A stretch of DNA of 63,479 bases, filler included, from Rhabdomonas costata (lineage: Eukaryota): assembly GCA_019059605.1 (NCBI GenBank). It is 27 parts of 27 records of this genome, joined end to end, with 100 filler letters (N's around TTAATTAATTAA, not from the genome) between each part and the next. Parts side by side here need not be neighbours in the genome. Positions count along the whole stretch, not along the records: positions 30,606 to 32,859 come from JAHMHO010004505.1; 26 more parts are not named here. The stretch is one strand, 5' to 3'. Each line of letters begins with the position of its first letter. The first letter of the stretch is position 1. The translations under genes and the position numbers were made by a program. Below, in pieces: positions 2,484 to 63,479 of this stretch. The notes under the pieces were generated by a model. That model did not search any database and was not told where the DNA came from. It was given only the letters and a program-made list of their open reading frames with translations.

Positions 2484-4581
2484 CTCGTCAAAAGAGGGGA
2501 AGTGCTTCAGGCCGTAGAACGAAGCCCACATCTGCAGCATAGGGTCGGGATGCTCACGGGCCCCCACGGCACCATAGCCGTGCTCAGGGGTGCAATGGGG
2601 GCTGACCACCATGTGGCGGTACTCCATCAGCGGGGGACTCTAAAGCGAGGCACAGCAGAAGAGCCCATAAGTTCCCCCAGCAGCAAACTTGGACCGACCA
2701 GGGTTGGAGACGCATTTCACATGACGGGAAAGCGAAGTGAAGGCTCCAGACCAAAAATCGCGGCATAGCAAATGTCAGGGAAAGGTCCTTCTGCCAACGT
2801 GTTCAAAGTGGGTGGGTTTTACACAAAAAAAAAGGCGCCCAAGCGCGGATGGTTGGTACGGTGTTGCCCTCGAAACGTATCGATTACCGCATGCCGCGAA
2901 GCTAACAAACCTGGGACAAGAAGAGGATGTACAAGCAATGTCGAACGTGGCAGAGATATTTTTCGAAAAGCGATAGGCAGCGTAGAAGGTGAACGACAAC
3001 GAGGGGAAAGCACAACCACATCTTATCCAGATATCCACCCTCACGCAACTCCATAAGCACAAGCCCACAAGCACACGTCTCGCTCAAAGCGCGCCCCCAC
3101 GAGGCCCACGTAGACCCCCTTGGGCTCAAACGTTCCGGGCTCCCCAGGGCGTCCCTGGTTGTTCCTACCCCCGCTGTTGATGAAGAAGGTCGGGGTGCTG
3201 ACCCCAAACAGCGCGGAGAGGGCCCTTTGTTGCAGAAGACGGACAGGTTTATTTTTCCCAGCAACCCGTTTCTATTCTCTTGCTAACAATTATATTCGCT
3301 GTCCTTCCAATGTTGTGGATTATCGCTGACCAGTGCCTTTCAAGAGACAAAAAAAGCAAGCAGTGGGCTGGACATGCGACACACTGCAAACTGGTGCTGA
3401 TCACAAACAGGTCACACAGGTCACACATATGGCACAGCAGTAACTTTCGAAAAAGGCAGGACAAACGTCAGCTCGAAGAGTGTGGCGATCGTTAGCAAAA
3501 CAACGCCCACAAAAAGGGGTGAGAAGGAGTCGCCACGAGGGGCTGCACACAGTTGAGGTTTATGAGTCCCCATCGGTTCGTGAAGATGCCGCAGAAGTTA
3601 TCCTGACCTCCCGTCACTAAACTACGGTTCCGTTCAGTTCCCCCACAACCCTGCTCCAAAGCGCGGCCCAAAACCTTAAGAGAAAGAGGAACAATGATTT
3701 AAAGTACAGCATGTGCGGAATTATGGCTGAGATTGCTTGCAGCTGGATGGACATCCAAATTAGAAGCGCAGTGAGATGCTTGGGTGGGGTTTGGCACCGA
3801 AAAACGCCCACGCAGCCGCGCAAGCAACAATAACAAACCAGCACAATCTTTTTTCGGGGGAAGGTACGAGGGCGAAAAAAAAAGCCGCAGGGTTAAAGCA
3901 GACAAGCGGCACGCATGCATTTCGTCGTAGCTCAGGAGCTCCTTGAGCTGCAGAGCGCCCGCCTCCTGGTCCGTACCGATCTGCTCAAAACCACCTGCGC
4001 CTTCCCTGCGAGGGCCGACCAGGTGGTACTCATCCGTGGAGTCCATGAACACCATCGGCCGCTGGCTTATCAGCCGGTCCAGAAGAACTGCCCAGGTCAT
4101 GCCGGAGTACAGCTCCTTTTTCAATGTGGCCGAATCGACAATGCACCGACAATTCCAGCCCCAAGCGATTGGAGAAGAAAAAGGGAGACAACAAGAAGGA
4201 AAAAACCTCACCAACATGCATGATGCGCCATGCTGACCAAGGTGTGCAGGGTGAGGAGAAGGGGACCTAAAAAGAGCATAACCAGTGAGCCAGTGCAGAA
4301 AAAAAAACGGGAGTTGCAAGGGTTAAATTAGCCTAATTATAAGCACTGGTGCACGCGGGGAAGTTGACCTTACGGGAGGCGCAAAGAAGTGGTCAGTTGA
4401 CTGCGAGTGACCTTTTCTCATCAGAAAAGAAATAAACTCACAACAAGCGTGCCTCCTCTCGGGCAGAGCCCGTCTTCCTTTTGACCTCCAGGAAGGTCTT
4501 CAGAAGGCCCTTGGCGTCCTCGCAGGCGACGATCCGCACGGAGCGGGCCTGCTCGACGATTTCCTGGCGCCTCCTGGGGTC
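2484..4581 (-). CDS. DUF4804 / MavL-like macrodomain-fold protein (putative ADP-ribosylarginine hydrolase), 4 exons, partial
   Basis: Exons 4581-4453, 4115-3919, 3224-3077 and 2639-2484 join in frame: FLEVKRKTGSAREE|ELYSGMTWAVLLDRLISQRPMVFMDSTDEYHL...FEQIGTDQE...LKELLSYDEM|ALSALFGVSTPTFFINSGGRNNQG...VGLVGARFERD|SPPLMEY...PEHGYG. These match the DUF4804 motifs LSYDE-x-x-LSAL, FIN-x-G-x-R-x-N and GARFER. Confidence 0.8.
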
Positions 4582-8379: not shown

Positions 8380-8537
8380 TGCGTTGTGACATCCATCTGC
8401 GAATCGTGGATTTAATAGAGCGTGTTTTGCATATGTGTCAGCTGTTAGTGCTCCTTTCATTGAGAACGAGAACCAACAGCTGACACAAATGCAAAACACG
8501 CTCAAAACCACGATTCACAGATGGATGTCACAACGCA
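8380..8537. repeat. Imperfect internal hairpin / MITE-like fold-back (about 75-bp arms)
   Basis: Left arm tgcgttgtgacatccatctgcgaatcgtgg..gagcgtgttttgcatatgtgtcagctgtt pairs with right arm aacagctgacacaaatgcaaaacacgctc..ccacgattcacagatggatgtcacaacgca, with scattered mismatches and an indel. Confidence 0.8.
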
Positions 8538-9512
8538 TGCAGTGAATAGCAGCACGAGGTCGATGACAATCGGTCCGCGATCTGCTACTCCCTGTGAGAT
8601 TGGATGATTGGGCGCCAAAACATTTTGACTGAAATAAAGTCGCAGTGGTTGCCTCTTGACACAATTTGGCTAATGCCTGCCCTGCTGCTTGACACAGGAG
8701 CACCTGTACGCTGCAGAGCTTGTCTACCAGCTGAGCTTCTTGCTCTCCACAGTCACGGCCAACGGTGTATGAGCGTGAGGGGGATGTGCTTTGGCCACTC
8801 TTCGGTCCGCTTATCAACGGTCCATTGTTCGGCTAAATCAATCCTGGTGGTGTTTTTCCCAGTGATGATGAGTTGTCCCCACACCAGACTGCATCATGCG
8901 TTGAGGCAGCAAAATCATATTTGCTATGTTTGAAAATCACATTTGCTATGGTAGAATTCCCTTGTGCAAACTTTCGGAAATTTTGTGGTAAAGTGTGAGA
9001 CATTTTCCAAATGACATGACTTTTGATCCAAATTAAAGTAAAGTTTGCTACGTCCCGAAGCCCAGAATTTAGTAAGTTTCCAAGCCCTGCTGGTGTTTTT
9101 CATGAGGCCTAAAAGCTTGCGGTCTGAACGGTGCAACGCGCTCGCATAGCGGCTTCCCACGAGCCTTTTCATGCCGACCGCGGGTTGGCCGTTGTGGTGG
9201 AGGTGCTGGCGACTTACGTCGACAGCAAGGAGATGTTTGCGCTGTGCTGCCAGATCCTCACGAACACTGTCCTCACCAAAGGTTCTTTCACCAACCCCAC
9301 CACCAAACACACCCACCACNNNNNNNNNNNNNNNNNNNNNNNNNNNNNNNNNNNNNNNNNNNNTTAATTAATTAANNNNNNNNNNNNNNNNNNNNNNNNN
9401 NNNNNNNNNNNNNNNNNNNTGGGGTGTGTCTTTTTGGCACCGGTGCACTTGCCGCACGCGCCGGTGCCAAAAAGACACACTCGCACCCATGGAGAGACCT
9501 GGCAGTTCCCAG

Positions 9513-15828: not shown

Positions 15829-18800
15829 CTGGGCAGGCTCTCCCTAGGGCGAAAAGTGGTAAACGGACAGCTCTCTCTCTCTCCCCCTGGAAAGTCCTAA
15901 ATCGGTTGCTATGCAGAGGTTGCAGCTTCACTGCGACCCGCTGGCGGTTGCACATAAGCTAACCTCCAATAACGGAATTTCTTCCAACACGACTCACCGA
16001 GGCAAACCACGCTGCCTGTCTCATTGTGCCCTCCCCTCTTTGGTCACTGTATCCAGCTCTTCGTAACGGTTGCCTGCACGACAGAAACCGGACATTTGTT
16101 TCTCCTTTCTGAACAGACTGTCGCGACCTGTTGAAGCTGTGCATTTTTTGTTCTTTGCTGTTCAGTGCTCAAAACCAGAAAATCACCACCATCAAAGCAC
16201 CAGGAAGAACTCCAACAAAAAGTTCAAAAATGTGTTGTATGACAGCAGTGACGGAAACCGCCGATAATGCAGACCTGTACAAAAGATAATGCAGACATAT
16301 ACAAAACACATGTGCCATTAAGCGCACATTTTCACCTTCAAACGTTACTCTGACTTTGAAAACACCGCGAAGACCAAACCCCNNNNNNNNNNNNNNNNNN
16401 NNNNNNNNNNNNNNNNNNNNNNNNNNTTAATTAATTAANNNNNNNNNNNNNNNNNNNNNNNNNNNNNNNNNNNNNNNNNNNNTGTGGTGGGTGTGGTTGG
16501 TTTGTGTTTGTGATTCCGTCACCGTTGTGTTGCCGTCTGTGGGACTGCTCGTATTGACCACGGTGGTCATATTTCTGAAGGTCTTGAAGTGTCTTGAAGC
16601 TAGTCTTGCCGTTATAGGCCTCCTTCTTTTGTCAGTTTGCGCCGCTGCTCGGCATGTTCACTAGGTTTTCATCGGCAATCGGAATGGAGCAGCGGGGTTC
16701 GGTGAGGCCATCGACGATAACATCAAAGAAAGTACGTCGATGCGCCTTGTTTTGAAAGCAAAATCTGAAAACATGCTGGCTTGAACCGAGAGTTCAAGCT
16801 CGGTAGAGAAGAGGCGATGCTGTTTTTCAGGTCTGAGGCATTGCAAATTGTGCAGGAGATTGGGCGACTACAAATTTTGGTGGCTCTTGTGTGTTGACAA
16901 ATACTGGCCGCATAATGACGCTGTGCTCCAGTGTTGCCGTGTGAAGGTTTAGTTGATGACGTCTACGTTTTGCGCCCCTTTTCTCTCACCTCGCTTGCAT
17001 GCTTGAGTGAGGCGAAAGGGCAATCACCACGAAAAAGATTGTCAGGTGAGGGGGGTTTTCGGTAGCGTGGGACTCTGCGCCAACTTAATAATACGGTGAA
17101 CGGTGAAAATGAAAATTTCCCGTTTTTTCATGGCTTCGGCAATTCCCTCATGCAGGAACCCCTGCCCTTCGGAGGGCAATCCAGAATGCCTTCGCCAACC
17201 TCGTCGTGATTGACAACACCTACAGTATGTTCCCAGGCTGCTGTTGTGCAGGGGAACAGCCTGTTGTTCAGTTTTTGTTGCTGCCCGTTTTGTTGTTGCG
17301 ATCGCTAGCAACGAAAAAGAACATGACTTTGTGAGTATGCGCCCCATGGGTTTATACCCTCCTCCCACCATGTGCGTGCGGTTTTCAGAGCCCAGTTACG
17401 GTTTGTCCGTGAGGTGTTGTCTAGGGTCCCTGCTCCTCCGCCTTTTCTTTCGCTGGCGAGCTTAGGAAAGGGTGGGCCGACGCGCGCGTTGCAGGGAAGC
17501 TGCCTTACCCCATTGAGGTGCAATGGAGGCACGTCCGCATGTACATGACTCCGTCCGACGACATGTTGGGCCATCCCGCGCTGAGACGGGTCAGATCACC
17601 CGCACATGCGCATACCCTGCTTACTCACCACTACCCACCAAACCACCGCTAATGGCTGCCCAAAATCCATTTCTCCCTGCCTCCTGTTTGCCCCACAACC
17701 CTTCTTCTTTCATTCTGGGGTTGTTTGGAGTGCTACACTCCGCATCTGCGCTCTCTGCGGCTGCACCCTTCCAAGAGCTCTCCCGAATGGTTAGTACTGG
17801 AATGGTCTTGCGTGTGCCCTTCACAGATTTGGTTAGTACCGTACACTTCAAAATTGCCTCTGCCAGGATCGGTGCCAATTCCAAAAACGGAGTCACGTGC
17901 GTCGCACTTCCACATTTTTTTCCGTATCTTTTGTCTGTCCGGGTGTAACCCACTTGTCTCCTCCGCCCCCCCCCCCACACACAAGAACCTGCATCTACGC
18001 TTTGCGGCTTTCTCGTGTCCTGCTTCCTTCTATTTTCTGTGCGTTTATATTTTTTCCGCGTTACCTCAAAAAAGGGAGAATTTATGCTCGCTATAATTTA
18101 AGGTGTACTTCTAGAGCGAAAAAGAGAGAGAAAACACGCTTTTTCAGAAAGGTCTCATTTGTTTCATAAAGTCGCACGCAGTGTGAGAAAAGGATGTCAC
18201 TATGTCGCCTTTTCAGTGCGCGTTTGCAAAGAAAGGCGCTAGTGCACTTATGCCCCCCCCCCTGGTAGGGTGAGCTGTGAAGTTTCGTGTTTTCGGTCCC
18301 CTTTCTGAGTTTGCTGGGGGTTAGGAGGTGATGCATGTGTTCCCTGGGATTCTAAAGCAAGTAATACCGAAGAGAATAGTGCGCAACCAATTCCGATGTG
18401 ACGTTTTTTCACGGTGACTTTCAAACGGTGGCCTTTTTCGGCGTTGGATATTCTGTTTTTACCGTCAAAGCGTAAGTTCTTTCTATACGGTGTAACCTGC
18501 TTTGCGATAGTGCGCAACGAATTTTTCCCTTTGGTGGCAGGGTGGTGGCAGTGACCGGGTGTGCTACGCCCCTCGTCATCGACTCATTTCGAGGTTTTTT
18601 GTAAAGGTTGCAAAACCATTGGATTGAAAATTTTCGGGCTTTGACGGAAAACCTGTATCTCAACTGGAAACCTTGTCAGTGTGGCCTGGTTTCCAGTTGA
18701 GATGCAGGTTTCCCGTCAAAGCCCGAAAACCCAACNNNNNNNNNNNNNNNNNNNNNNNNNNNNNNNNNNNNNNNNNNNNTTAATTAATTAANNNNNNNNN

Positions 18801-21041: not shown

Positions 21042-21639
21042 GGGCCACAGCAAGACGGGCTCAAAGAGGTTAAGGGAAAACCCCAACACANNNNNNNNNN
21101 NNNNNNNNNNNNNNNNNNNNNNNNNNNNNNNNNNTTAATTAATTAANNNNNNNNNNNNNNNNNNNNNNNNNNNNNNNNNNNNNNNNNNNNGGGGGTTGGG
21201 GGGCAGCGCATGCTTGCTGTCCGAGGGGAGCACTCCTGGCGCATGTGGTGTGTGTGAATTGAGAGACAGGTTTCCTTTTTCTTAGTCGGATTTCACCAAC
21301 AAACCAACAGGGTACGAGCAAGGACAAGCGGAGACACTAAGAAGAGAAGCCGAAAAGAGAAGGAGCTAAATTGGGTGGCTACATAAGAAAAACTAACTAT
21401 TCAAAGCAATATCTTTCAGGCTAGCGGAATAGCGGTGGCAAGCAATTTAATCTGACTGAAGTGTGGTCATGGAGAAGAAAGAAGGCCCCTTGCTCGGTTG
21501 CACTGGCGCAAGACACCATCGGAAGTGTTACTGTTTGAAAAACTGAAGTGTAGAGATGTATGAGGGGCCGTCCAGGTGCGGAGCAAGCAATATCTGGAAG
21601 GAAGCGGATGAGCCAGAAGGAAGAACGCCCTCCACAGAC

Positions 21640-23201
21640 CCATCAGTTGCTCAAAGGGCTTGAAGGGCTCCCCAGGGGTCATCTCGTATTTGTTGTCGAC
21701 GTCCACGCTGGCGGACAAGTCGGAGGCGAACGGGGAGTAGTGGAAAGGGTAGAACCTGTACGCAAACATGATATATATGATGTAGCCCTCCAGTCCATCT
21801 CTTCACACCAGAAGAATCGTCAGCTGCATATATCGTTCATGAATGACAGCCTGCACAGCCATACAAGGTCACAGGAAAGCCGGAGAGAAGCGGCATACCA
21901 CTTCCACGACGGGCAGCCGTTGAAGTAGTACCTGCTCGGGAAGCAGAGGAAAGAAGGGATTAATGCGTGGCGCCTGGCGAAGTCGTAACCACAGCTCCAT
22001 GGAAACATCAAACGCGAGATTGGAACTAGAACCAATTACGCAGCCCTACAATCAGCAGCATAGATGCATCGCCACTGCGACGTGCGAAGGCAAAATAAAA
22101 AAGAAACGCATCTCGCCAGACAACTCAGAGATGGGCGTTAACCTTAGCATACGATGCTCCCTGCAACAGTGTAGTGGACGTGGTGGTATGTTATGTTGTG
22201 TGGGAGTGCTGCCCAAAAATATTAATACAGATTAATAAAGATTAATACGTTTTACACAAACCCTTCGGAACCCTAAAGACCAGGAAAAGGCGATGACATC
22301 GGTAATTGCAGTGAAAAAGCCCCATCTGTTTGTGCGCTGCATGCACTCAATCGGGCTTACATTTAAAATTAGCTGCGCTGCTTCATTACAAAAAAAGAAA
22401 AACCAAAGAACACGAACTCAGAAGCACGCCGAAATCACAGGAATATGTCAACATGCCGGAACACCCAAACCAGGCCCTCGAAGTAGCTCTCCGAGGCGCT
22501 GGAGGCCTTGGCGATGATGTCGGCAGCATCCCCCGCCCCAAGCTTGCTCTGGTAATACCTACGACAGAGACCATGACCTTTCTTCAATTTGCACAGGAAA
22601 AACGCTGCTTCCGCGACCTCACTCTGTGACAAATTTTTTTTTTCGGTTTTAAACCGCTGACTTTTTGGATGCTGGTTATACTGTTTTTCTTGATAAACCA
22701 CAAGTTCGATGTAACCTGCTTTGCAGTTTCCCTTGTTTTTTGAGTTTTTTGAGCTTGGCGGCAGGAGGCGTATTCCATTCCTGATCGAAGGGAGTAAATT
22801 GCATAGGCACAGTAATGATGAGTAGTAGTGATGCAAGGTCTTCTTCTTGGACTCCAGGGGAAAGGAAACTGGCTTTCGCTTTAAGATCGAACCAAGACTG
22901 AACCCTAAAAGTTAAAGGAAATAGTGTGTACTTCACACTGCCACACTGCCCCCCCCCCTCCGGTTTTTTTGGCAGGTTTCCAGTTTTTCTTCAGGCAAGA
23001 ACTGGCCATCTACCGTAAGAAAGATTTGAGATTGGGTATTTAATGCTCCAAGAAGAGGAGAAGGAGGGGGGAGGGCAGTGGAATAACCGCTCTTTCCACC
23101 CAGGCTCCCCGAATCTCACCGAGTCGGGTTGACGCCCCTCAACGTTGTTCATGTCTTCCTTCTTGAACAACATCAGGTCGGCAAGCAAATCCGCGGGCGG
23201 C
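21640..23201 (-). CDS. XRN-family 5'-3' exoribonuclease (partial, 4 exons)
   Basis: DSVRFGEPGWKER|YYQSKL...SYFEGLVWVFR|YYFNGCPSWKW|FYPFHYSPFASDL...GEPFKPFEQLMG, the conserved XRN region 2. XRN1 versus XRN2 not resolved. Confidence 0.95.
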
Positions 23202-27359: not shown

Positions 27360-28251
27360 TACGGCCACCTGTGTTTGCGAACCAAAATCGTAGAGAACAA
27401 AAGGTGAAGACCTGCGCAGCACCAGAAAATCAAGTTCGTAAACAGCAGTCGCCAGTACTGCAGCAGAACAACATTCCCATGGCACAGTGCAGGCAGCTGT
27501 CGTCCGTGTGTGTGTGTGTGTGTCTGTGTGCGGTTGAAGTCACCAAATCGATACGCACATACCAATACATATTCTTCAGGACGTTTTTGCCTTTACTGTG
27601 GCACCACCAATGTCCCCATCCTCGCCCGTGTCTATTTCCGATTTCCAGGACCGCCGTGACGTGGAGGAGAGCTGACATACGTAATTCTCGGGCAAGATTT
27701 TCTCTCCCAGCAGTTAATCGAACGGGAAATAATTTTGCAGGTGCATTTCTTGGCATTTCTTGGACTTTCTTGGCATTTGAAATGCATTAACTTTCATGTA
27801 TGGCGACTGAACAATCCAATGTGAATGGTGCGTGTCGAGACACTTCTTGCTGTCGTTTTTTTTGCTTTCGGTGACACTTGAGTCCCACTGGTTCGCCCCA
27901 AGCGTTCACTCCCGTTGCCCATAACGAGGTTATTTATCCATGAGGAGGGAAGCGCCTGAGCTAAAGTTTAGCTAGGAGCTGCTGCCTTATTTCTCTCAGT
28001 TTGGAGACGGTTGTGAAATTTTTGCAACTGTCCACTACAAGACGTCAAGCCACAAAAAAGTTAGCTTTTCAAAGCTTAAAGCTTACATACCCAGCTTTGC
28101 CCCCCACCGCTACCACTGCCTGGCCGGTGTCTGGACTGGCGGATACACTACNNNNNNNNNNNNNNNNNNNNNNNNNNNNNNNNNNNNNNNNNNNNTTAAT
28201 TAATTAANNNNNNNNNNNNNNNNNNNNNNNNNNNNNNNNNNNNNNNNNNNN

Positions 28252-28454: not shown

Positions 28455-31400
28455 GTTTGTGCAGAATTTGTGGAGATTTGTTTTGGGTTGTGAGTTTACA
28501 TCTTCGCGATTGTACTTCGGGAAAGAGAAACCAGCAAAGCCAAAAAAGGATCAGAGTGTGCAGGCAAGTTCCGCCGCCACGGGAATTCCTTAACATTGTC
28601 TCTAAATGCTCAGGCATAAACCCTCGCTTGGCACGCACGAGAGGAGCAACGGCGGTCCGAGGAGCCCCTGTCGACGTACCACTTGGAACCCAAAGGTTGC
28701 CCACAGCGACGGCTGTCAACATCGCTCACAACTCCATAACCTCTCAAGAACCCTCTCAGCCTCTCCTCCTCACCGCACAAATCTTGCAAGTCAAAAATCG
28801 AAAACATGACAAATCTGAAGAGAACGTGCATCGCAACTGATGATTTCTAATGGGATCCCAAGGGGCACGTGCATCGCAACCTAACCCCCAACCCTTCTTC
28901 TAATGGAATCCAAATTGGGGCGGGATAATATAGTGCTGCCATACATATGTGTCACGACGGAGGAGGACTTGGGCCGGCGAGCCACCGCAGTTTCGTCTGC
29001 AAGAAGAACGGTATCACACACAGCAACCGCAAGCATGACTATGATGTCTGCAAGGGGTGGCATGGCATGGGTTACCGCATCTTTGCCGTTTCGCCGAGCG
29101 GTGTGGCTGGAGAGGGTCAGTCCGCACGGCGACCTGAGTTGGGAGGTTTTATGGGTCCGTGTTTAACAGTGCTAAACGACCGAAGCGGTTTCTTGTTTGA
29201 AGATGCTATTTTTGGAGTCAACGATTTCCAAAATATCTTGAACAAACAAGGACCCCGTCCCCCGGTGTCAATGTTGGGTAATACTGTTTTCCAATACATT
29301 CAAAAAATGGGGAGGCGGGGGTTGTTCACTTTCAATGTTTATAATCTATGTCAGCCGCCTGGATGAATTTGCAGGGATATAGGTGTGCCTCCCTTGCGCC
29401 CATAAGATGGACATTTCCCCATTTCTGGGGCCCAGAAAAAATATGACACTTTGGCAACGCTAAGCATGTAGGGCTACCCCACCATACCCTACCCCCGAAA
29501 AATTCAATACCCCACTCAGATGCTTCGGCCTGAAGCCTTTTTTTCTGCAAGGTGAAGTTGCCGGCATCGAGAGAAAACCTTGTGTTGCCCTTCTTCTAAT
29601 TGAATCCAAATTGGGGCTGGATAATATAGTGCTACCAATAATATATAATGGGTTATGGGTAGAGCAAAATGGTCAGGCAGTAATACCAAAGGAGTGTTCA
29701 CAAAAGCTTCCAGAACGACGGTAACCAAGTGTGTGGTGGACGATCATCAGCCACTAGCTTAGCCAACGTACTCTCAACAAGCGGGTCATTACTGCGTGCA
29801 AATTATAGACTCCAGCTGATTGGCGATATATAAGAGGTCTCAGCTGACCTGTCATCCTCAGAACCACGCGCAACTGGTTGTGTTGGTACAATGGTAGTGA
29901 ACAGCTCTGAGTGCGCCCACACAGGCGGGACAAGCTCTGGATATACCGAATACAAGTGACTGTGCTAATCTGAAGGGGGTGTTGCTCTGAGCTGATCATC
30001 GCTTTTGCTACAGGAACCTGAGAATGCTTAGTAATCAGCCTGATGTGAACGGTACGTCTCCTCCAAAGGAAACAACATATAGCTTGTCTCACGCACTAAG
30101 TCTGCAAGTGTAGTAAATGTGTACGAGGATCCAGAATCCCAAACATCGGGGGAAATCAATACGGCCACATTTTTGGTTACGCCAAAGTTGCACAGAGCAA
30201 TTTTAGTCTTTGGATAACGCTGCAACTAGGGTTGCGATAGAATGGCATGCTGTTGGTGTGTCCGATGTTGTCGCTGCAACTGGATGTGTTGTCACAGTAG
30301 AGCATAATTCATCAGCAGCGCGGGCTGGTTTATGAAGGCCTGGTATTTGAGATTATTAATTTTGGAATTTCGATAAATATGGCAGTGTAAGTGATACCGT
30401 ATTGTTCGCAACCTCGGAATTTCTCTGCAAGATTCGAAAAATACGGTATCACTTACACTGCCATATTTATCGAAATTCCAAAATTAATAATCTCAAATAC
30501 CAACCNNNNNNNNNNNNNNNNNNNNNNNNNNNNNNNNNNNNNNNNNNNNTTAATTAATTAANNNNNNNNNNNNNNNNNNNNNNNNNNNNNNNNNNNNNNN
30601 NNNNNGAGCCGTCTCATTTTGAGTTAATGTAGTTTTAGTTTTGGTTTTACAAGATTCCCGGGGGGACAAAATGACGTTCAACAGCACCATGGCGGTGAAG
30701 AAAGACCAAAATATCCCGGCGCAAAAAGTCACCTTTTTTCCATGCCGATTAACATCCAAAAACGTTGTCAATCCAATCCAAAGCGGTATCCTTTGAACTT
30801 GTGCGTGTTTTTTTGATTCTCTATGCGGCCGGAGATGGAAAATTAAACCTACGGAGTATTGAGGCAAAGGCGGGAAGATCAGAAAACCGGCCCGCACAGG
30901 TTCCCGCAAACCAATCACAAAGGAGCTCCTTGAAAACAGGGGTGGTGAGCAAACACACCCGTGCAGAACTCCCGTTCTGCCACACCCCCGATGTGTTTTT
31001 TCCAAAAGCCGCAGTTGCCCATGGTACGGAAGGCCTTCTTTAGGACGCCGTGTCCGAAGGAGGTCGACCACACAAAACGCACAACACACAACTCCAGCGC
31101 TAAGCGAAGGCGGCCAAGAATCCGCCTTTGGTCTGCGCGGAAAATTCGAGCGTGCGCGAGTGCGTGCCTCGGTGAGCCGGTCGGCAGGCGGACGGTCACT
31201 CAAAAAGGCAACCCCAAAACGCCAGAACAACAATAATATCTGGTTTCATTTGTTGCACCGTGAACGACAGCAGGGAATTGCTTCTGGATGAATGCTGCGT
31301 TTGTCCCACAATTCTGCCCCCCGAAAAAGCTATAGCCAGAAGTCCACGGCACCGCTGTAGCGCTGTGCTGTTGCTCTCGCCTCAAAATCCAAAGCGGAGG

Positions 31401-31475: not shown

Positions 31476-31736
31476 TCACTTTTGATTGGACTGAGCGGCG
31501 GCCGCGGCAGCGAGGCTCACCGCACGCTGTGCGTAGGGGCGGTACGCCTTGGCCAGGGAGAGATCCACTGCAAAGGCGTTGGCAAAGCCCCGCAACATTA
31601 GTGCCAGCCGCCCCGTCATGACGTACTCCCGGGGCACTGAGATCACTGGGTCGGCATGATTCAGCCAGTCCATGTACGCCATGGGATTCAGGCCCTTCTC
31701 CCGGGCTGGCCAGTCGTTGTCGTTGTAGAATGCGGC
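31476..31736 (-). CDS. ABC1/ADCK/UbiB atypical kinase, terminal exon
   Basis: gcag|AAFYND...DPVISVPREYVMTGRLALMLRGFANAFAVDLSLAKAYRPYA, matching the ABC1 C-terminal P-x-x-x-x-x-x-x-R-x-x-x-x-LRG motif. Confidence 0.75.
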   Translation of the reverse strand, partial: AAFYNDNDWPAREKGLNPMAYMDWLNHADPVISVPREYVMTGRLALMLRGFANAFAVDLSLAKAYRPYAQRAVSLAAAAAAQSNQK

Positions 31737-31934
31737 CTGCTCGCAAAGAGTGAGAAGGCAAACAGATGATTTGACCATGGAGATACTGCATCAGTAGTAG
31801 AGTTGCCCCAACCTCCGCACATTTGGAGCCTTCGAGTCTACCACCTGCTGTTGTAGATTCGGCATGGCAGGAATGGGTCCCCTTCCACTCCCGCCGCCAA
31901 TGCACCAACACGAACACCAATAACCGTGGAGATT

Positions 31935-32745
31935 GAAAAAAATTAGGTCGACTTTCTTACCAACTCCAAAATGCAATAACTCGTCACAGTAAAAGAGTGG
32001 AATTGGAATTTGAATATTAAGACGATTTATACTTGTCTTACCAAAGTTATACATATGATTTTTTAGAGCCCATATCATACGTTTACTAAAAAGAGCAGAA
32101 AATGAAGCGTATATATTTGCTGTATTAACGCCTAATTTAGAACCCAATTTAAAATAGTTATCGTATGGAACATTAAGTGTATCGTCTTGATCCTCTTGAC
32201 TCATCACTTTGATTTTTGAAGTGGAAAAGACAGTGTCTTGTTCCAACTTAGACTGAAAAAGCATTCTCTATAACGTCGAAGTAGTACCTGCAAATTGATA
32301 ATTGTTAACATCTGTAGAACTAATCACACATTTTATCGTGTCAAATATTGAACCGAGTGGGTTTTGTGTAAGATAAGGGACAGATATACCAGTAGGATTG
32401 TCACGAGTACCGCTATTAATAATTGGTTCAAGTGTTGTTTGTGTTCCATCCTCTCTCACCTGTGTAATTTGAATTAGAGCTGTAAGATAATAGTTCTTTC
32501 CATCAAGCACCCAACAACGAGAAGCTGAGGACGACAAGAAAATCGTAGCTTGCTGCTTTTCACCGGAACGTCTTTCCATTATAAACTATATCCTCAGGTT
32601 GATCTATTGTGAACTTAATATTGTTCCCCCCAATGTTAGTAGAAGAGCTAACAGAGGGATTACTCGAAATTTCGAGCAAATCGGAGCTATATATTGCCGA
32701 ATAAGGGACTGACATTTTTGATATATCAAAATTTTTGCTTTATCG
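31935..32745 (-). mobile_element. Endogenous viral element: decayed Polinton-like-virus double-jelly-roll major capsid gene (N-terminal half)
   Basis: AT-rich island. Removing the insertion 32504-32570 plus one copy of its 9-bp repeat and reading through TAG at 32268 restores about 240 codons: FDISKMSVPYSAIYSSDLLEISSNPSV..NIGGNNIKFTIDQPEDIVYNGKNYYLTALIQITQ..PYLTQNPLGSIFDTIKCVISSTDV..L*RMLFQSKLEQDTVFS..LNIQIPIPLF. Confidence 0.62.
32495..32579. mobile_element. 67-bp insertion flanked by a perfect 9-bp direct repeat (TCTTTCCAT)
   Basis: Repeat copies at 32495-32503 and 32571-32579. The insert is more GC-rich than its flanks, and its removal joins two frames seamlessly (VYNGK|NYYL). Confidence 0.8.
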
Positions 32746-33387
32746 TCTTTGTTTCTCAAGTGCTTAGTTCACCCCTGCTATCTCTTTCGTTCCTTCCTGT
32801 AAATTGTTTGTTTTTAGTGTTACACTCGTCCCGCACTCTGGTGCCTGTGCCGCAGTGCCNNNNNNNNNNNNNNNNNNNNNNNNNNNNNNNNNNNNNNNNN
32901 NNNTTAATTAATTAANNNNNNNNNNNNNNNNNNNNNNNNNNNNNNNNNNNNNNNNNNNNTTGGTGGTTCAGCATTAAACTGGTGCTGTGATGGAGGGTGG
33001 AGGAGTGGTGGTGGGGAGTGCCATACGGGTCAGGAAGTGGGTGGTGAGTTCCAGGTAAGCTGGTCTTGGGGCGACCCGCAACCAGAAATCATGCCCTGTT
33101 TTGCTTTATATAGCAACCCGCGTTTGTGGGGGCATGCCCCATATTGGTATTATTGTTTTGTAAATTACACACTGGACTTGTGTGGAGGTCTTTTCATCGT
33201 TTATTGTTTTGTAAATTATTGCCTTTTCCTTCCGTTAAATCTAGGTACAATGCTGACGATGTGTTTGGATTTTCCGTTCAATCCAAAATCTTGAAAAACG
33301 CAGAAGAAGCCGAAGTACAATCGGATTCCCGAAAGCACCTTGTGAATGTTTACACCACTTGTCCCTCCTAGAGTACTTCGTGGGCAT

Positions 33388-34185
33388 CTAACCCCAAGCA
33401 GCAGGCAAATCAGAGAAGCAAAGGGAGCCATACCACCACGAGGTAGGGCATAAACGCAGGTAATCAACCGAAGCTTTCTGGTTGTACCTTCCCTTCACCG
33501 AGACCAGACCGGGCTTCACTTCTTCAGCTCCAATGGCCACCTCATTGTAATCCACATCCCGAACGTCCACTGCCGTACCAAACTCAACAAGAATCTCTCT
33601 TTCCTCCGCGTAGCACGACAGCTCAGCAATGTTGTAGCCCTGAATCTCGGACACCGTGTAGAGGGTGCGCTCGCCTGTTTTGCCAGTCATGAAATTGGCA
33701 AGCACTTTGGGATCGGTGGTGAAGGAGGTCAGGCTGTTAAAGTAAATGGTCCGGACTCCAATCTTTATGGCCCCATCCACCCCACCTTCTGCTCGGTAGC
33801 CCTTCACCCCACAGATCCGGAATCGCTCTGGAAGACACCGCAGTCCAATCAGAACCAACTTCGCAAAGAACAGCACATCCCAAAATCGCACATTTCCCTG
33901 GTTGGACATCAGGTGTCTCAGAACATAACACAGCAGCTCTCCGGTGAAGCTTCGGAGGGCGGCCAGACACTCGACGCTGACAGTGCAACGGACGTCTCCA
34001 GGGGCTTTCTCCTGGGCCCAGCGGAAACACTCCTCCAGGCAGTCCTCGCCCGCGCTCCAGGCTGCGTTGAAATCGAAGGTCATCTCTCCTCTGTGTGGGT
34101 GGGTGAAGTGCACCCCATCCAGTTTCTGCACTGCCTCGCGCAATGTGAGGACCGGAATATCGTCAAGAAGCGATGCACGGTTCAT
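33388..34185 (-). CDS. Second R-S-E class mono-ADP-ribosyltransferase
   Basis: Uninterrupted ORF: AALRSFTGE, GLRCLP, GYRAEG (R), FNSLTSFTT (S), RTLYTV, GYNIAELSCYAEEREILV (ExE). Confidence 0.82.
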   Translation of the reverse strand: MNRASLLDDIPVLTLREAVQKLDGVHFTHPHRGEMTFDFNAAWSAGEDCLEECFRWAQEKAPGDVRCTVSVECLAALRSFTGELLCYVLRHLMSNQGNVRFWDVLFFAKLVLIGLRCLPERFRICGVKGYRAEGGVDGAIKIGVRTIYFNSLTSFTTDPKVLANFMTGKTGERTLYTVSEIQGYNIAELSCYAEEREILVEFGTAVDVRDVDYNEVAIGAEEVKPGLVSVKGRYNQKASVDYLRLCPTSWWYGSLCFSDLPAAWG

Positions 34186-35487
34186 TGTAAGGCGAGCAAC
34201 AAAAAAATCAAAGTGTTTGGAGAAACGAAAAAAACCCCAGTGGAAAGAGTAGCGCCAACAAGCCATCTGAAGTGTGTGATTGCTTTCGAGTTTGCATCTT
34301 ACGTGATGGACCTTCAGGCAGACAGTCTGCTGAATTAAACCTAAATGAGGCACAGAAGGGCGAGGGGAGGTGTCTGTACACACAGTTCAGCATCCTTTCA
34401 TTGAGTTTTCTGAGTTTTCGATTGGTTTTTTCAGGTGATTTTCAATTGGGTGGTGTTCTTAGGAAGGGGTGGGGGCGCCCTCCTGTCCTTAAAGTACATG
34501 AGGAAGCAGGCTTTTTGATTGAGTTTGGGTTTAGGTTTATGATAGAGCCCCATAAAAGGCAAAAAGCTACAAGACAATTCTCGACCCGAAATTTATACGT
34601 CTTACCGAGAGGGTATGCGGTGTGGTTGGAGGGGTGGATACCGCCTCATTTTTGACGAGAGGCGGGAAGGCGGGTAGATACATCATCCTAATGCATCGCA
34701 TCATCACTCACATCAGGTTCTCTTTCTTGCCCTCTGACTGCGGTGGCTGCCATCAGATTAGTGGATGCATCCGTAAGGTGGGTCTTGGCGTTGGAATTGG
34801 CATCTCTCACTCACTTCACTCATCAGCCCACCTTGCGGGCCCACTCTCAGCGTCACCATCCCAGCATTGACATCGCCTCAACCACCGGAGGTAGGATTGG
34901 CATGTCGTGGGGTGGCCGCTGCCCTTGGTTACCCATCACGCTAATACATCGAGTGGAGTAGCAAATGACCTCAGGGAGAGTGGAGGGGTTGACTGCAGCG
35001 GCCACCCTGACATAGCGACAGGAGTGACATCTTGGCATGGTTGCCTTGGCACTGCATCATGGCCCCTGGTTAGTACTGTGGTGGTGGGTTACAGCTATGG
35101 GTTATGTATACTCTTGCCACTCCATCAGTGCATCAATAAGGTGGTGGTCTATGTCTGATCTTACCACTACGGTAGAGTGTGTACCCTGAGCTCATCGCGT
35201 AGTGCATACAACANNNNNNNNNNNNNNNNNNNNNNNNNNNNNNNNNNNNNNNNNNNNTTAATTAATTAANNNNNNNNNNNNNNNNNNNNNNNNNNNNNNN
35301 NNNNNNNNNNNNNGTGTTGGGTTCTTCCACAGTAGATAAAGTAATGTGGAATAATAGGCCAATGCGGCCGTTGTTTTGTGCCACACTTATGTTGTGCTGG
35401 TGCTGGTGATGGAGGTATATATCCTCTCACCCCTCCCCTTTGGTAAGGAGGGGGCAAAAGAAAATGGATCTTGTCGCCTCGTCCCAG

Positions 35488-46733: not shown

Positions 46734-49700
46734 CAAGTGAACCCGAGGGGCCTGTTTGGGACCGTTTCGTCGTCAGAGCTCTAAAAGACGGTGTAGATAG
46801 ATAATTGGAGTTTGTCTCTGCGGTAAGCCAAGTCGTTTTAAAGCGGAGAGTGTTTGGTGAACCCACACGCAGGCTAAAGGGCTGTGCTGAGGTGAGGTTG
46901 CAATTCCGCCTTTGCTCTTCCGCCTTGTAAAAATGAAAGGTTGTAAACAAAATGGACCCGAGGCGGAATTTGGCTTACAATTTAATTTTTCGCTTTTTTC
47001 ATGCATTATCCCNNNNNNNNNNNNNNNNNNNNNNNNNNNNNNNNNNNNNNNNNNNNTTAATTAATTAANNNNNNNNNNNNNNNNNNNNNNNNNNNNNNNN
47101 NNNNNNNNNNNNTGTGTTTTTTAACTTAGAATAATCACTCTGTACCAGCACACAAAAAATACACAATTTTAATGGAGTAAATAGTAGTGTGATGGCTGGA
47201 TGTACTTGTAATATGAAAGTATGACAATTGGCAAAAATATGCAATATTACTCTACAATGCCTCTTGTTAATTTTTGCCAATTGTCATACTTTCATATTAC
47301 AAGTACATCCAGCCATCACACTACTATTTACTCCATTAAAATTGTGTATTTTTTGTGTGCTGGTACAGAGTGATTATTCTAAGTTAAAAAAAGCGTAACA
47401 AAAATGCCAAGAATTGCGTGTTCTGACCGTGTTTGGCCACACGTCGATACTGTTTGTGTGGAGTTATAAAGGAAGCATAGTGAGAGAGAAAAAAGATGAT
47501 AAGTGCAAAAATCTGCGAAAAACACCGATGGAAGAAAAAGCGTGAGTTTGATAGGTGCGTAATAGTTCTGAGCTATGATGTGTTTAGGTAATGATGGGTT
47601 TTGTGGGTGTGTGGGTGTGCCCCCAAGAACCATCGTCGATTCGGTCCTCTTCTGTTTTTTAGGCTCGTCATTGCGTTTTTAGCTAGATGTCTCAATCCAC
47701 TAGGATCCTCGCTACGCTCCTTGCTCCTCTCTCATCCTCTCTCAGATTCCAAATGCTTCGTGACAAAAAGAAAGGGTGCAAAGAGGAGGGTGCCGAGACC
47801 GACATGCTGATGTTCTCTCTGTGTTTTCACTGTGTCAAATCCTCATTTCAACGCATCAATCAACCATACCAGGAACCATGCTGCATGGTGTCATGGCTAT
47901 GCCAGTGATAATGTTGGTGATGAGTACAAACCAAGGTATTAATTCAATTTGTTTGCTCCCTTTCCACCACAACGGCGAGTTACACGAATATGCGTTTAAC
48001 CTGATATCTGTTTCCGCAGTCCATGGTGGCGTTATTCCTGAGTGGCAGTGAATATCCGGAACCTGACACCATACATCCCGCATTTTAATCACAACTGCGT
48101 GCCTTGCGGCTAAGCAGACGCCAGCCCCGAAGCCGCACGGAGTTGAAGCTACGACTTGATAACACCACTGCAACTTTGTATGCTACCAGGCCAATTCTCC
48201 ATCCTCAGAGAGATGCGGTACTGGATGTCCGAAGCAGCTGCACAGCGCTTCGAGTAACTGGGTGGGTATTTTGTGGTCTTTAATAGGGTCGAACGACTCG
48301 AGGCGCAAAGATGGGATGTTTTTCTCGCCTGGCGGGTTTTACTCACCTTTTATCAACCACTAGTAGCATTTCACTGTAGTGTGTGTTTCATTTTCCGACT
48401 TTGCATTGGCTACATGAGGCCTGACCAACTTCTCCGGAAACCCCTTTGTTTGGTGCAACCGAAAATCCCATAAAATTCCCCGCTAATGGCTACGGTTGAA
48501 AAGGTTGCACGTAGAGCCCGGTGGGTAATTCTGCTGGTATGCGGAGTATCTTTGAAACAGGCCCTCCAACAGTCTTGTGCTTAATCGGACGGCGTATTAT
48601 AAATTTCGAATAGCTTCTCATTTCACTTCTTTTTTCAGCTATAAGAGCATCTTGTAGCCTTTAGTCTGCCACGCTCAGAGCCTGCCAGCACAAAAGGGGT
48701 CCAATAGCATTGCGAATGTCTGTGAAACAGATAAACCACGTTTTAGTCTCAAAAGACCGACTCATCCGGTTCTGAGTCATAGTCTAGTTTGATTGCTTTT
48801 TTGCGACGCAAAAATAAAAGTTTTAACAAGCGCGAGAAAGTGGTTGTGTTAATTGCCAATTTTCTGTATATTTCCATTGGACAAACAACACATAAGTGGG
48901 TACTACTAGGGTATTTCTTAAAGATGGAGAATTTTTAAGCGCTAACAAATGTGCTCATTTTTCAATTTTCTCATCCATTATTTTTGGAACAAACGGACTT
49001 CAAAGTAACAGAAACCACGTTAAAAGTAACAGACAAGGCCATTTAAATTTTTTGCCTTTATTTTTGATCTGGGATTCGTGTTGGTTTTCGTCCTGGTTTG
49101 GCTTGGATTTGACTCGGGCTTTATTTTCAATCTGAGTTTGCCTTTCTGTTTGTGATTTGTCGGAGGTTTAATGCGGCGGATGCGGCGTTTTGCGTATTTT
49201 GGGCCATGGACTACCAAGTTTGCGATGTCGCTCCTGTGAGTATCCGGTTTTTGGTTCAAAGATTTCCGTCACACGCCCGCCACCCGGCCCATTCTGCACT
49301 GTCTCTGTTTTTGCCCCCGGCCGGGTGGCGGGCGTGTGACGGAAATCTTTGAACCAAAACCCACNNNNNNNNNNNNNNNNNNNNNNNNNNNNNNNNNNNN
49401 NNNNNNNNTTAATTAATTAANNNNNNNNNNNNNNNNNNNNNNNNNNNNNNNNNNNNNNNNNNNNGTGTGGGTGTGGGTGTGGGTGTGGGTGTGGATGAGA
49501 ATGTTGGGTTGTGTTGGGCGCGCATCGGGCAAAGAAACGTGGCACAGAGGCATACACAGGAAGGATATGAGTTGAGGTTGAGTCGGAGCGAGAGCCTTCT
49601 GCCTGGCGTAATTACATCCAGACCTGAGCCGATTTTTCTTGCCGGAGCGGGCACAAGAGTGCCCCCTCCCTCCCTCCCTCTCTTCCCCTCGGCTGTGGTG

Positions 49701-60766: not shown

Positions 60767-63479
60767 GTGTGCGTTGCTTTTGCCTCTCCGTGTGACACTG
60801 TTGCTGCCTGTTGGAAGTGATGGATGTCCACACTGCGTCACCGTGGTTGGAGTAGAGTGCTTAACAGTTCTCGAAACTCTCCCTCCCCTCCCACTCCCCG
60901 CCAACAATGCGCACCTTACACCGCATTTTGAGTTTGTCTTTCGTTTTCCTTCCTCTCCACACGTTAAGACGCAAAGCAAGACCAGGCTTGTCAAAAGCGT
61001 TATCATGAACGTGTGCATCGCCGAGATCGAATGTCTTGTCCTATGGGACACGTGCATCGCTTCCTAACCCCCTCGCCCAAGATCAAAAAACACTGTCCAT
61101 ATATTGTTCTACTGCCTTTTTTGCGCCNNNNNNNNNNNNNNNNNNNNNNNNNNNNNNNNNNNNNNNNNNNNTTAATTAATTAANNNNNNNNNNNNNNNNN
61201 NNNNNNNNNNNNNNNNNNNNNNNNNNNTTTGTTTTTGCTTGCCCACTGGTTTGCAGCCAGCGCCTAGATTGCCATCTGTCAAGATTTGTCCTTTGTTCCT
61301 GCCGTTGAACTTTTCGCAGCAGACCCTCGACTTCCGTCCTTCGATTTCCCGATAAAACCGACATATGTCCTACTGGTCCGGGCTGGAGATCGCGCCGCGA
61401 CGCAGTGACCTTTCCCAAAAGCCCCCGCACCAAACCCAACAAACCCGTCGCACCGGGATCCGCCGGATGACTTCAAAGCCCCCAAGCCAAGCGGCACTTT
61501 CATCAGGGAATTGCCCGCCGGAAGACCCGCCGGCCGAGACAGGAAGGGGGAGCACAGTGGGTCGGGTACCGGGTCGGTTGGATGTTAAGGCGGAGGGTGG
61601 TTTTGAGAGGCCAAATGGGCGCCTTTCCCCGGAGGTGCGGTTGAGCCCCGCGGTGTCCATCAGGGATCGTGTTGATGAGTAGAACTGGGGAGAGCGTTAC
61701 AAGTATTGCATGGGCAAAAGGCCGGTGGAGACGAGAAACGGGCGTAAGTTGGACGGAGTCGTCTTTCCGACACTAATGTCATGCGGCTGGCAACTGAATG
61801 CTGGCGAGGCGGGGTAACACCAAATGGTGGAACTACATATTTTGACCGCCAATGACCGTGGCTGAACGAATCCATACGACTGCCACCCGAAAAGCGCAGA
61901 GGCCAGGAGTGAAAGAACCTGGTTATAATCCCGGCCCACTGATGTAGCAGTTGGGGGCGCGAAAACATGGCATCGGGGAACCGAAAGCACAATTTCAGAA
62001 AAGCATTCGCTTGAAAGCTGAGAAAAATTCCGGAAAACCCAATTACAAACAGACCGTTGGGCGCACAAAAAACACACCGCGCGTCGCAGTGCTGGACAAA
62101 CAGGACTCGGAATGCCTCAGGTGTGGAACCTTTTTGAACCTGAGGTATGAACAGAACGGAAGAACACACATCTCAAGTGAGAAGGAGGCTAAAACGACGG
62201 AGAGGAGCTCATATGCACACACAAGGACATCCCTCCGATGCGAGCGTAAGGGTGCATGTGCGTGAGTGGGGGTGCCTTTCCACCAAAGCGAACCCTTCCT
62301 CGATGCCAAAGCAAGCCGAGGTGTAGACAGGGATACTGGTGGGATTGATGGCGGGATGCCCTACTGCAGAGCAACGCGCTGGCACACACGCTCACACACA
62401 GCGCGAGACACAGCGAACCCAACACACACACACACACACAAAGAGAGACAGAAGCATTTGCCGGCACTGTGGCACTTACCCCATTGCACGCCACAGAAAA
62501 AAAAGTGGCGGGATCCGAAAGGAGGGAGGGAAGAGAGGGGAGGAAATGTGCAGGGGAGGGGTTTTGAAAAGACTATATGGAAAACCCACTGCAAAGTGGA
62601 ACACGGGAAGAGAGGTTCTGGGGAAGGTTGTAGCCAGCAAACACAAAAACAGAGTGTGAGGCTGAAGGAAAGGCTGGGGTGACCATGTCACGTCCCAAGC
62701 CCAAACGAGAGAAGGTGGACAACGGTCCAAGCCCAAAACGGCGCCGAGTTCAGGCTGACCCCCCAGGCAGGCCAAAAGCCCCAAGCACTGGGGGGAACGC
62801 TCAGGGAAGGGGCCAGAAGGGGAAAAGCGAGTGTATGGGTGGCAGAGACTGGAACCCGCGAACGACACACAGCGAGGAAGCGATGTAACAGTGCACACCG
62901 GGAGGGTGAGGGTGACGGAGTCACAGATGCAGGGAAAGCCATGAATGCAGGAAGGCCACGCTGTGGTCCGGTGAGACACCCGACAGGCATAACAAAGAAA
63001 ACACAACACACCTAGAGAGAGAAACAAACAAAAATAAGTATTAACAGCTGCACCGGGCAGGTTGTGGTAGACGTGATAGTGCTTCCACATCCTCTTCTGT
63101 GAGAAAAGTGCCATGAGATTGCCCGTGTGCGATGCCGTAGAGACCCCCTCTCCCTTAGTACAAAAAAGCAAACGTCAAGTCTGAGTCCACACAGAGTTTT
63201 CGATTCGATTTCTGAACGCCTGAGTGATTGGCAGCATTTAAACAGCTGGCAGGATGATTCCGGGCGACATTCCAAAAGTCAGGCTCCGAGCACAGCCAAG
63301 TGCTGAGTTACAGTTCTACTAAGCTTGCGGTGAAAACGGACTCTACTTTGTATCGGTGTTGCTTCCGCAAGAAAGACGGAGCACAGGGCATACCTCGCTT
63401 TCTCTTAGGGCTTAGCAGAACTGTAACTCAGCACTTGGCTGTGCTCGGAGCCTGACTTTTGGAATGTCGCCCAAAACCA

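Follow-up and report, generated by a model that had tools for sequence, protein, structure and literature searches.

We identified, in a 63,479-base stretch of DNA from an intron-bearing eukaryote (hereafter, the window), an AT-rich island that is the relic of a double-jelly-roll major capsid gene, the fold being assigned by modelling a full-length relative of the encoded protein. We consider it probable that this is a dead endogenous element, the front half of a capsid gene derived from a small polinton/virophage-like virus rather than from a giant virus. The donor would belong to a family of AT-rich viruses known to date only from unnamed metagenome proteins, and the main interest of the island lies in this unnamed capsid family and its gene neighbours; the protease and the basic, core-like protein encoded there, together with TCTA motifs, hint at virophage-like biology.

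The window consists of 27 separate contigs, each of 2250–2287 nt, joined by linkers of the form N44-TTAATTAATTAA-N44, so that features on different contigs are without linkage. The island lies on the contig at 30606-32859 (2254 nt), which extends only 144 nt beyond the capsid ATG on its upstream side and carries no upstream exon; the host/virus junctions and both lesions of the gene were read from this one 2.25 kb contig. The host is taken to be an intron-bearing eukaryote because short exon-like bits of eukaryotic genes occur on other contigs of the window. Pfam matches were obtained for 6 of the 115 ORFs of at least 110 aa in the whole window, all of them cellular (Thiolase_C, GPHR_N, XRN_M twice, Hydant_A_C, and MavL-like) and none a viral hallmark, and an Rfam search of the window returned no matches. 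On one contig, two ORF pieces on the minus strand (21470-21802 and 22438-22911) align to separate portions of the Xrn1 helical domain, which is consistent with their being exons of a 5′-3′ exoribonuclease gene with an intron between them. The ORF piece at 3702-4322 (minus strand) matches the Pfam MavL-like ADP-ribosylhydrolase family (E 1.8e-15), which takes its name from a bacterial effector and is found here in eukaryote-like DNA, and a 332-codon open frame on the contig following that of the island (33391-34386, minus strand) has no Pfam match at E ≤ 1e-4 and looks by eye like an ADP-ribosyltransferase-type domain in its C-terminal part. Palindromes of 59–276 nt, 79–93% self-complementary, occur in 6 of the 27 contigs, at a contig end in 5 of those 6 (47117-47391, 49246-49362, 63262-63472, 30341-30502, 18631-18729, 9424-9480, and 8380-8537). 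These long palindromes may be hairpin-forming repeats or artefacts of assembly or amplification; none lies on the island's contig.

The island spans about 0.85 kb (31915-32790) and is set apart by its composition, as the sequence-only reading of this DNA had noted: its GC content is 0.33–0.38 against 0.51–0.63 in the flanks, and third-position GC is 0.26–0.38 in both capsid pieces against 0.78 in the neighbouring exon (the metagenome relatives have 0.16–0.22). Inside the island, GC amounts to 0.338 (31915-32503), 0.375 (32580-32715), and 0.333 (32716-32790); outside, it is 0.531 (31740-31914), 0.629 (31476-31739), and 0.507 (32791-32859). The last of these segments (32791..32859) runs to the contig end, is host-like in composition, and has no recognised coding sequence. 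It adjoins the AT-rich leader upstream of the capsid ATG (32716..32790, minus strand), which is without the TCTA motif of the relatives.

Beyond the other end of the capsid sequence, a GC-rich spacer (31737..31914, minus strand, GC 0.53) ends in a polypyrimidine tract and a CAG acceptor whose last position is 31737, on the same strand as the island and 180–200 nt downstream of it, in agreement with the earlier placement of an acceptor about 200 bp away. The intronic position proposed along with that placement is not established, as the contig has no exon on the far side of the island. There follows a terminal exon-like ORF of 86 codons plus stop (31476..31736, minus strand, third-position GC 0.78), for which a UbiB/ABC1 C-terminal label is a lead only: the exon reached a feature score of 0.97 to a cluster auto-named UbiB family in the language-model Atlas, with Pfam on 0 of 30 matches, and it had no match in Pfam, NCBIfam, PDB, a plasmid tblastn, or a longer-protein search. 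The open frame that runs on from the capsid piece through the spacer (31737..31914) has no homology to the capsid family. With BLASTP the alignment reaches some 70 nt further, into GC-rich sequence, and the 47-aa GC-rich tail alone scores no better than 574–643 of 2000 shuffles; the capsid homology hence stops between 31935 and 31913. A PDB sequence match of the read-through piece to a lectin repeat in this tail (E 0.004) was judged spurious because the tail is without family homology. No other copies of the insert or of the flanks were found within the window, the longest chance matches being 12–16 nt.

Within the island, the minus-strand ORF list gives 32560-32739 and 32268-32585 in different frames, the latter continuing after a TAG to about 31791–31794. 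The capsid ATG is at 32715, and its frame is open to 32560. Two pieces of the gene can be delimited: a first comprising the start codon, codons 1–45, and the first base of codon 46 (32580..32715, minus strand; family HMM E 1.9e-09), and a second comprising codons 46 to about 241 (31915..32503, minus strand; HMM E 1.3e-28 and 1.4e-38), equivalent to approximately residues 46–233 of relatives that are 490–541 aa long. Between them lies a frame-breaking insert of 76 nt (32504..32579, one of ten equivalent placements), composed of 67 nt with a GC content of 0.507 and one copy of a 9-nt direct repeat, the two copies of which (32495-32503 and 32571-32579) are 76 nt apart. Repeats of this size are common by chance, with 10 repeat families of at least 9 nt in this 2254-nt contig; we regard this one as meaningful because, once one copy and the 67 nt are dropped, the frame is whole again and aligns to the relatives without gaps. 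The two ORF pieces and the repeat-flanked insert of the sequence-only reading are thus borne out, as is its estimate of about 240 continuous codons after repair (about 241 within the AT-rich part). That reading also called for one TAG to be read through, and here the nature of the lesion stands while its place has shifted: the TAG is at 32268..32270 (minus strand), at a position occupied by Tyr in all 17 of the aligned database rows. By eye, the island copy keeps 11 of 13 invariant or near-invariant columns, the 2 lost being the Tyr position that holds the stop and a Glu position that has Gln. In our interpretation, the 76 nt were inserted, with duplication of a 9-nt target, when the copy already lay in GC-rich DNA.

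A phmmer search of 1.84 billion representative proteins with the 189-aa piece, the TAG entered as X, gave 74 matches at E ≤ 0.001, 44 at ≤ 1e-10, and 11 at ≤ 1e-30, with a best match at E 2.1e-58 and 58% identity. The full-length matches (490–541 aa) align to the 189-aa piece over residues ~41–234, and with the first 45-codon piece included, the island holds only the first ~232–241 residues of its relatives. A word-indexed search retrieved closer fragments (57–76% identity) on ENA or Logan contigs of 617–2138 nt, all unnamed. When an HMM of the family, based on the alignment's 17 database rows, was run on the 2522 six-frame ORF pieces of the window, only three pieces were matched, all from the island (E 1.4e-38, 1.3e-28, and 1.9e-09); three other matches fell below inclusion (E 0.67–4; the best at 27797-27967, on another contig, E 0.67), and the second half of the capsid gene was not recovered anywhere in the six-frame ORF pieces of the window. 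In a tree of 45 rows, none of them discarded, and 237 columns, the island copy is nested within a clade of environmental fragments. Judged by its homologues, the broken frame is the relic of a real gene.

The family is nevertheless without a name in the resources searched. Source annotations were limited to "hypothetical protein," on 3 of 23 matches. Pfam gave only a sub-threshold DUF6242 match for the island pieces and nothing at cut-off for 12 relatives, the single Capsid_N match (E 0.037) scoring 14 bits against a cut-off of 24, so that 0 of 12 family members reached the cut-off of the Nucleocytoviricota capsid models Capsid_NCLDV and Capsid_N. NCBIfam and a PDB sequence search with a 26-sequence profile yielded no match, no relatives were found in IMG/VR, GTDB genomes, or a phage collection, and the best protein-atlas score of the unbroken 109-aa piece, 0.77, is below the useful level. 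Accordingly, Pfam, PDB, IMG/VR, and the phage collection provided no sequence match of the family to a described polinton-like virus (PLV) or virophage group. The family may already be contained in the supplementary capsid-cluster tables of a published survey (PMC10120064).

The assignment to the double-jelly-roll major capsid proteins is made through structure, since the predicted model of a full-length relative (P0008; AlphaFold2, pLDDT 87.1, pTM 0.87) matches solved and known capsids. Foldseek returned 245 PDB matches at E ≤ 0.001, led by the capsids of PBCV-1 (5.6e-17), SGIV, and faustovirus and including those of Sputnik (5.4e-15) and mavirus (6e-13) as well as ASFV p72. Among 106 BFVD matches at the same threshold, the leaders were a Sissi virophage capsid (5.6e-18), an adintovirus capsid-class protein (1e-17), adomavirus LO7, and a Qinghai Lake virophage, followed by asfar-like and other giant-virus capsids, with abalone asfa-like virus, Terrestrivirus, and ASFV at ranks 8–10. 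The island's own 189-aa piece, modelled from 37 sequences (pLDDT 72.7), had 0 BFVD Foldseek matches at E ≤ 0.001, its best being an adintovirus capsid at E 0.5, as is to be expected of an incomplete jelly roll; the fold claim consequently rests on the full-length relatives. The sequence-only reading had proposed a Polinton-like-virus capsid, with the fold of the rebuilt protein as its check. The double-jelly-roll class is upheld by the modelled full-length relative, although not by the fragment's own model, and the PLV lineage is not established, there being little to choose, for the model of P0008, between the capsids of virophages, adintoviruses, adomaviruses, and giant viruses.

To see what kind of virus is involved, we turned to the gene neighbours of the relatives. 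We examined 10 JGI metagenome loci encoding relatives (L001–L010), drawn from 241 pattern matches; they are 1.05–2.6 kb long with a GC content of 0.26–0.42, and all contigs of relatives are 5.7 kb or shorter. Five loci reach past the capsid stop, and in 4 of these a small Arg-rich ORF comes directly after the capsid gene (L001:1891-2127, L003:1638-2018, L004:1407-1796, and L005:1260-1637). These ORFs contain repeated (L/I/V)-x-G-x-G motifs resembling adenain cleavage sites, a lead that suggests an adenovirus-like core protein precursor. The next ORF after the Arg-rich one, in both loci long enough (L004 and L005), matches Peptidase_C5, the adenovirus endoprotease, at 23.5 bits in L005 (E 4.8e-05, cut-off 21.3) and 20.9 bits in L004, where it is cut by the contig end; this protease family was found in 2 of the 10 neighbour ORFs scanned. 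The ORF upstream of the capsid gene (L002:2-637, L008:2-589, L009:206-1492, and L010:2-766) is Lys/Glu-rich and coiled-coil-like, without a Pfam match and with no recognisable penton; those of L002 and L008 are 37% identical over about 92 residues. Two of the relatives' capsid genes are themselves broken, by an in-frame stop (L007:77-200) and a frame shift (L008:644-800), and may be decayed insertions in the environment or products of sequencing errors.

A TCTA motif lies within 50 nt upstream of 8 of the 10 gene starts in these loci, compared with 17.5% of background windows (binomial 2.8e-05); the island copy has no upstream TCTA. The motif is one that virophages also use. In the available text of PMC13196603, TCTA is the late-promoter motif of CroV and ChlorV, and its presence before the relatives' genes may point to viruses that depend on giant viruses of this kind or are akin to them. 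The companion genes that the sequence-only reading had proposed to look for (pPolB, packaging ATPase, and penton) did not come to light: neither the window nor the relatives' 1–2.6 kb contigs contain a penton, packaging ATPase, polymerase, or integrase gene. The adenain-type protease as a neighbour leans toward a polinton/virophage-like virus over a giant virus, without settling the matter, and the protease, the Arg-rich ORF, and TCTA together lean in the direction of a small polinton/virophage-like virus.

A fragment of a giant virus (Nucleocytoviricota), for example a divergent capsid paralogue of a giant endogenous element of the Euglena gracilis type, appears an unlikely source, with arguments on both sides. 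It would fit the PDB fold matches led by PBCV-1, SGIV, and faustovirus capsids, the asfa-like virus, Terrestrivirus, and ASFV capsids at BFVD ranks 8–10, and the TCTA before 8 of 10 relatives' starts, given the use of this late motif by CroV and ChlorV (PMC13196603, available text). Asfuvirales elements, as the accessible part of PMC12455990 describes them, have a GC content of 25–37% and many divergent capsids in a euglenid genome of ~51% GC, a pairing of compositions that resembles the island and the window. The seven best named BFVD matches are, however, virophage, adintovirus, and adomavirus proteins, 0 of 12 family members reach the Pfam giant-virus capsid models, the capsid gene lies near an adenovirus-type protease and an Arg-rich ORF, and the relatives' contigs are all ≤ 5.7 kb. 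It is decidedly unlikely that the island, as real viral DNA, owes part of its present form to assembly, either through a chimeric join to GC-rich DNA or through a TAG that is a false consensus of near-identical copies. In its favour are the strong fragmentation of the assembly, represented here by 27 contigs of ~2.25 kb, the palindromes of 59–276 nt in 6 of 27 contigs, at a contig end in 5 of the 6, and the stop or frame shift also present in two metagenome relatives (L007 and L008); when protist capsid genes lie on short contigs, moreover, their stops and frameshifts often arise from a false consensus, according to the available text of PMC10120064. Against it, one contig carries three composition switches (at either flank and at the internal 67 nt), a duplication of 9 nt is not long enough for an assembler to join sequences on, the island's contig is free of long palindromes, and the gene is halved with its second half nowhere in the window.

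We regard as extremely improbable an expressed or domesticated capsid-like gene in which the 76-nt insert would be spliced out as an intron, be it of the conventional, the introner, or the euglenid nonconventional type. The insert's GC content is host-like, its exact removal restores the frame, and direct repeats border 84.4% of Euglena introns in the available text of PMC12501133. The same text gives the code of Euglena nonconventional introns as 5′-N3-CDG ... CHG-N5-6 followed by a purine-initial exon; none of the 10 equivalent border placements has C-D-G at intron positions 4–6, or C-H-G 5–6 nt before a purine-initial exon, and a hand check found GT-AG in 0 of 10 on either strand. RNA structure across the insert is no more stable than that of shuffles (z 0.36), and the frame would still have the TAG and lack its second half.

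Under the origin we favour, from a small polinton/virophage-like virus, the island would be the 5′ leader and first ~240 codons of a ~500-codon double-jelly-roll capsid gene, covering most of the first jelly roll and lodged in GC-rich, intron-bearing eukaryotic DNA. As assembled, the contig presents GC 0.51–0.63 flanks on both sides, a truncation, a TAG, and a frame-breaking insert, the marks of an endogenous element, and the insert and both flanks, all of host-like GC, lie with the viral sequence in one contig with three switches between host-like and virus-like composition. The donor was most likely a small polinton/virophage-like dsDNA virus, since an Arg-rich ORF and then an adenovirus-type protease gene come after the capsid gene in this family. 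Since its arrival, the copy has lost its 3′ half, its frame has been shifted by a 76-nt insertion with a 9-nt duplication, and a conserved Tyr codon has become TAG; integration at the present locus, the order of these changes, and the lack of present function are what we infer. The island copy cannot make a capsid protein and would now be passive DNA about 180–200 nt upstream of a host terminal exon. On a more speculative reading, which we think doubtful, the island is the first cellular anchor of an undescribed, widespread lineage of small AT-rich double-jelly-roll viruses whose kit would comprise an adenain-type protease, an Arg-rich core-like protein bearing protease sites, and CroV-type TCTA late-promoter motifs; with this adenovirus-like maturation set and the TCTA motifs, they would be parasites, in the manner of virophages, of a giant virus infecting the host lineage, possibly a euglenid one, from which no such small virus is known.

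Capsid fossils of integrating DNA viruses are common in protist genomes, and the phenomenon itself is therefore ordinary; the value of the island is that of a pointer, in that a capsid family without a name in Pfam, PDB, IMG/VR, or the source annotations seen is now tied to a cellular genome. As far as the available text of PMC10120064 goes, the island resembles the endogenous PLV and virophage capsids of protists in being an AT-rich gene that has apparent stops and frame breaks and lies, in a fragmented assembly of protist-like character, on a short contig, and its relatives come from freshwater and peat metagenomes, as do those capsids; the Gossevirus group of the same text offers a further likeness in its link to a cysteine protease and its virophage-like modelled capsid. 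Unlike the elements described there, the island is half a gene only, with no terminal repeats, penton, ATPase, or polymerase seen here. The Sputnik (3j26) and mavirus (6g44/6g45) capsids share the double jelly roll of ~500–600 aa (Foldseek E 5.4e-15 and 6e-13, respectively; TMq 0.48–0.55), the best BFVD match is a virophage capsid, and the relatives' adenain-type protease neighbour and upstream TCTA motifs are shared with virophages. The family differs from the Sputnik and mavirus capsids in sequence, with 10–13% identity and no sequence-level match, and from virophages in gene order, the relatives' protease lying downstream of the capsid gene, past the Arg-rich ORF, and the upstream ORF being coiled-coil-like with no recognisable penton. 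Our searches of the literature on euglenid polinton-like and endogenous viral elements turned up no small double-jelly-roll virus element described from euglenids. The giant endogenous elements of Euglena gracilis (Asfuvirales), in the accessible part of PMC12455990, are likewise low-GC viral islands with capsid markers and signs of erosion in a genome of ~51% GC; those elements measure 86–311 kb and carry giant-virus core genes, whereas the island is 0.85 kb long, has none of these, and belongs to a capsid family below the Pfam giant-virus capsid cut-offs. Should the host be a euglenid, the island would place a small virus beside the giant-virus relics lately described from that group.
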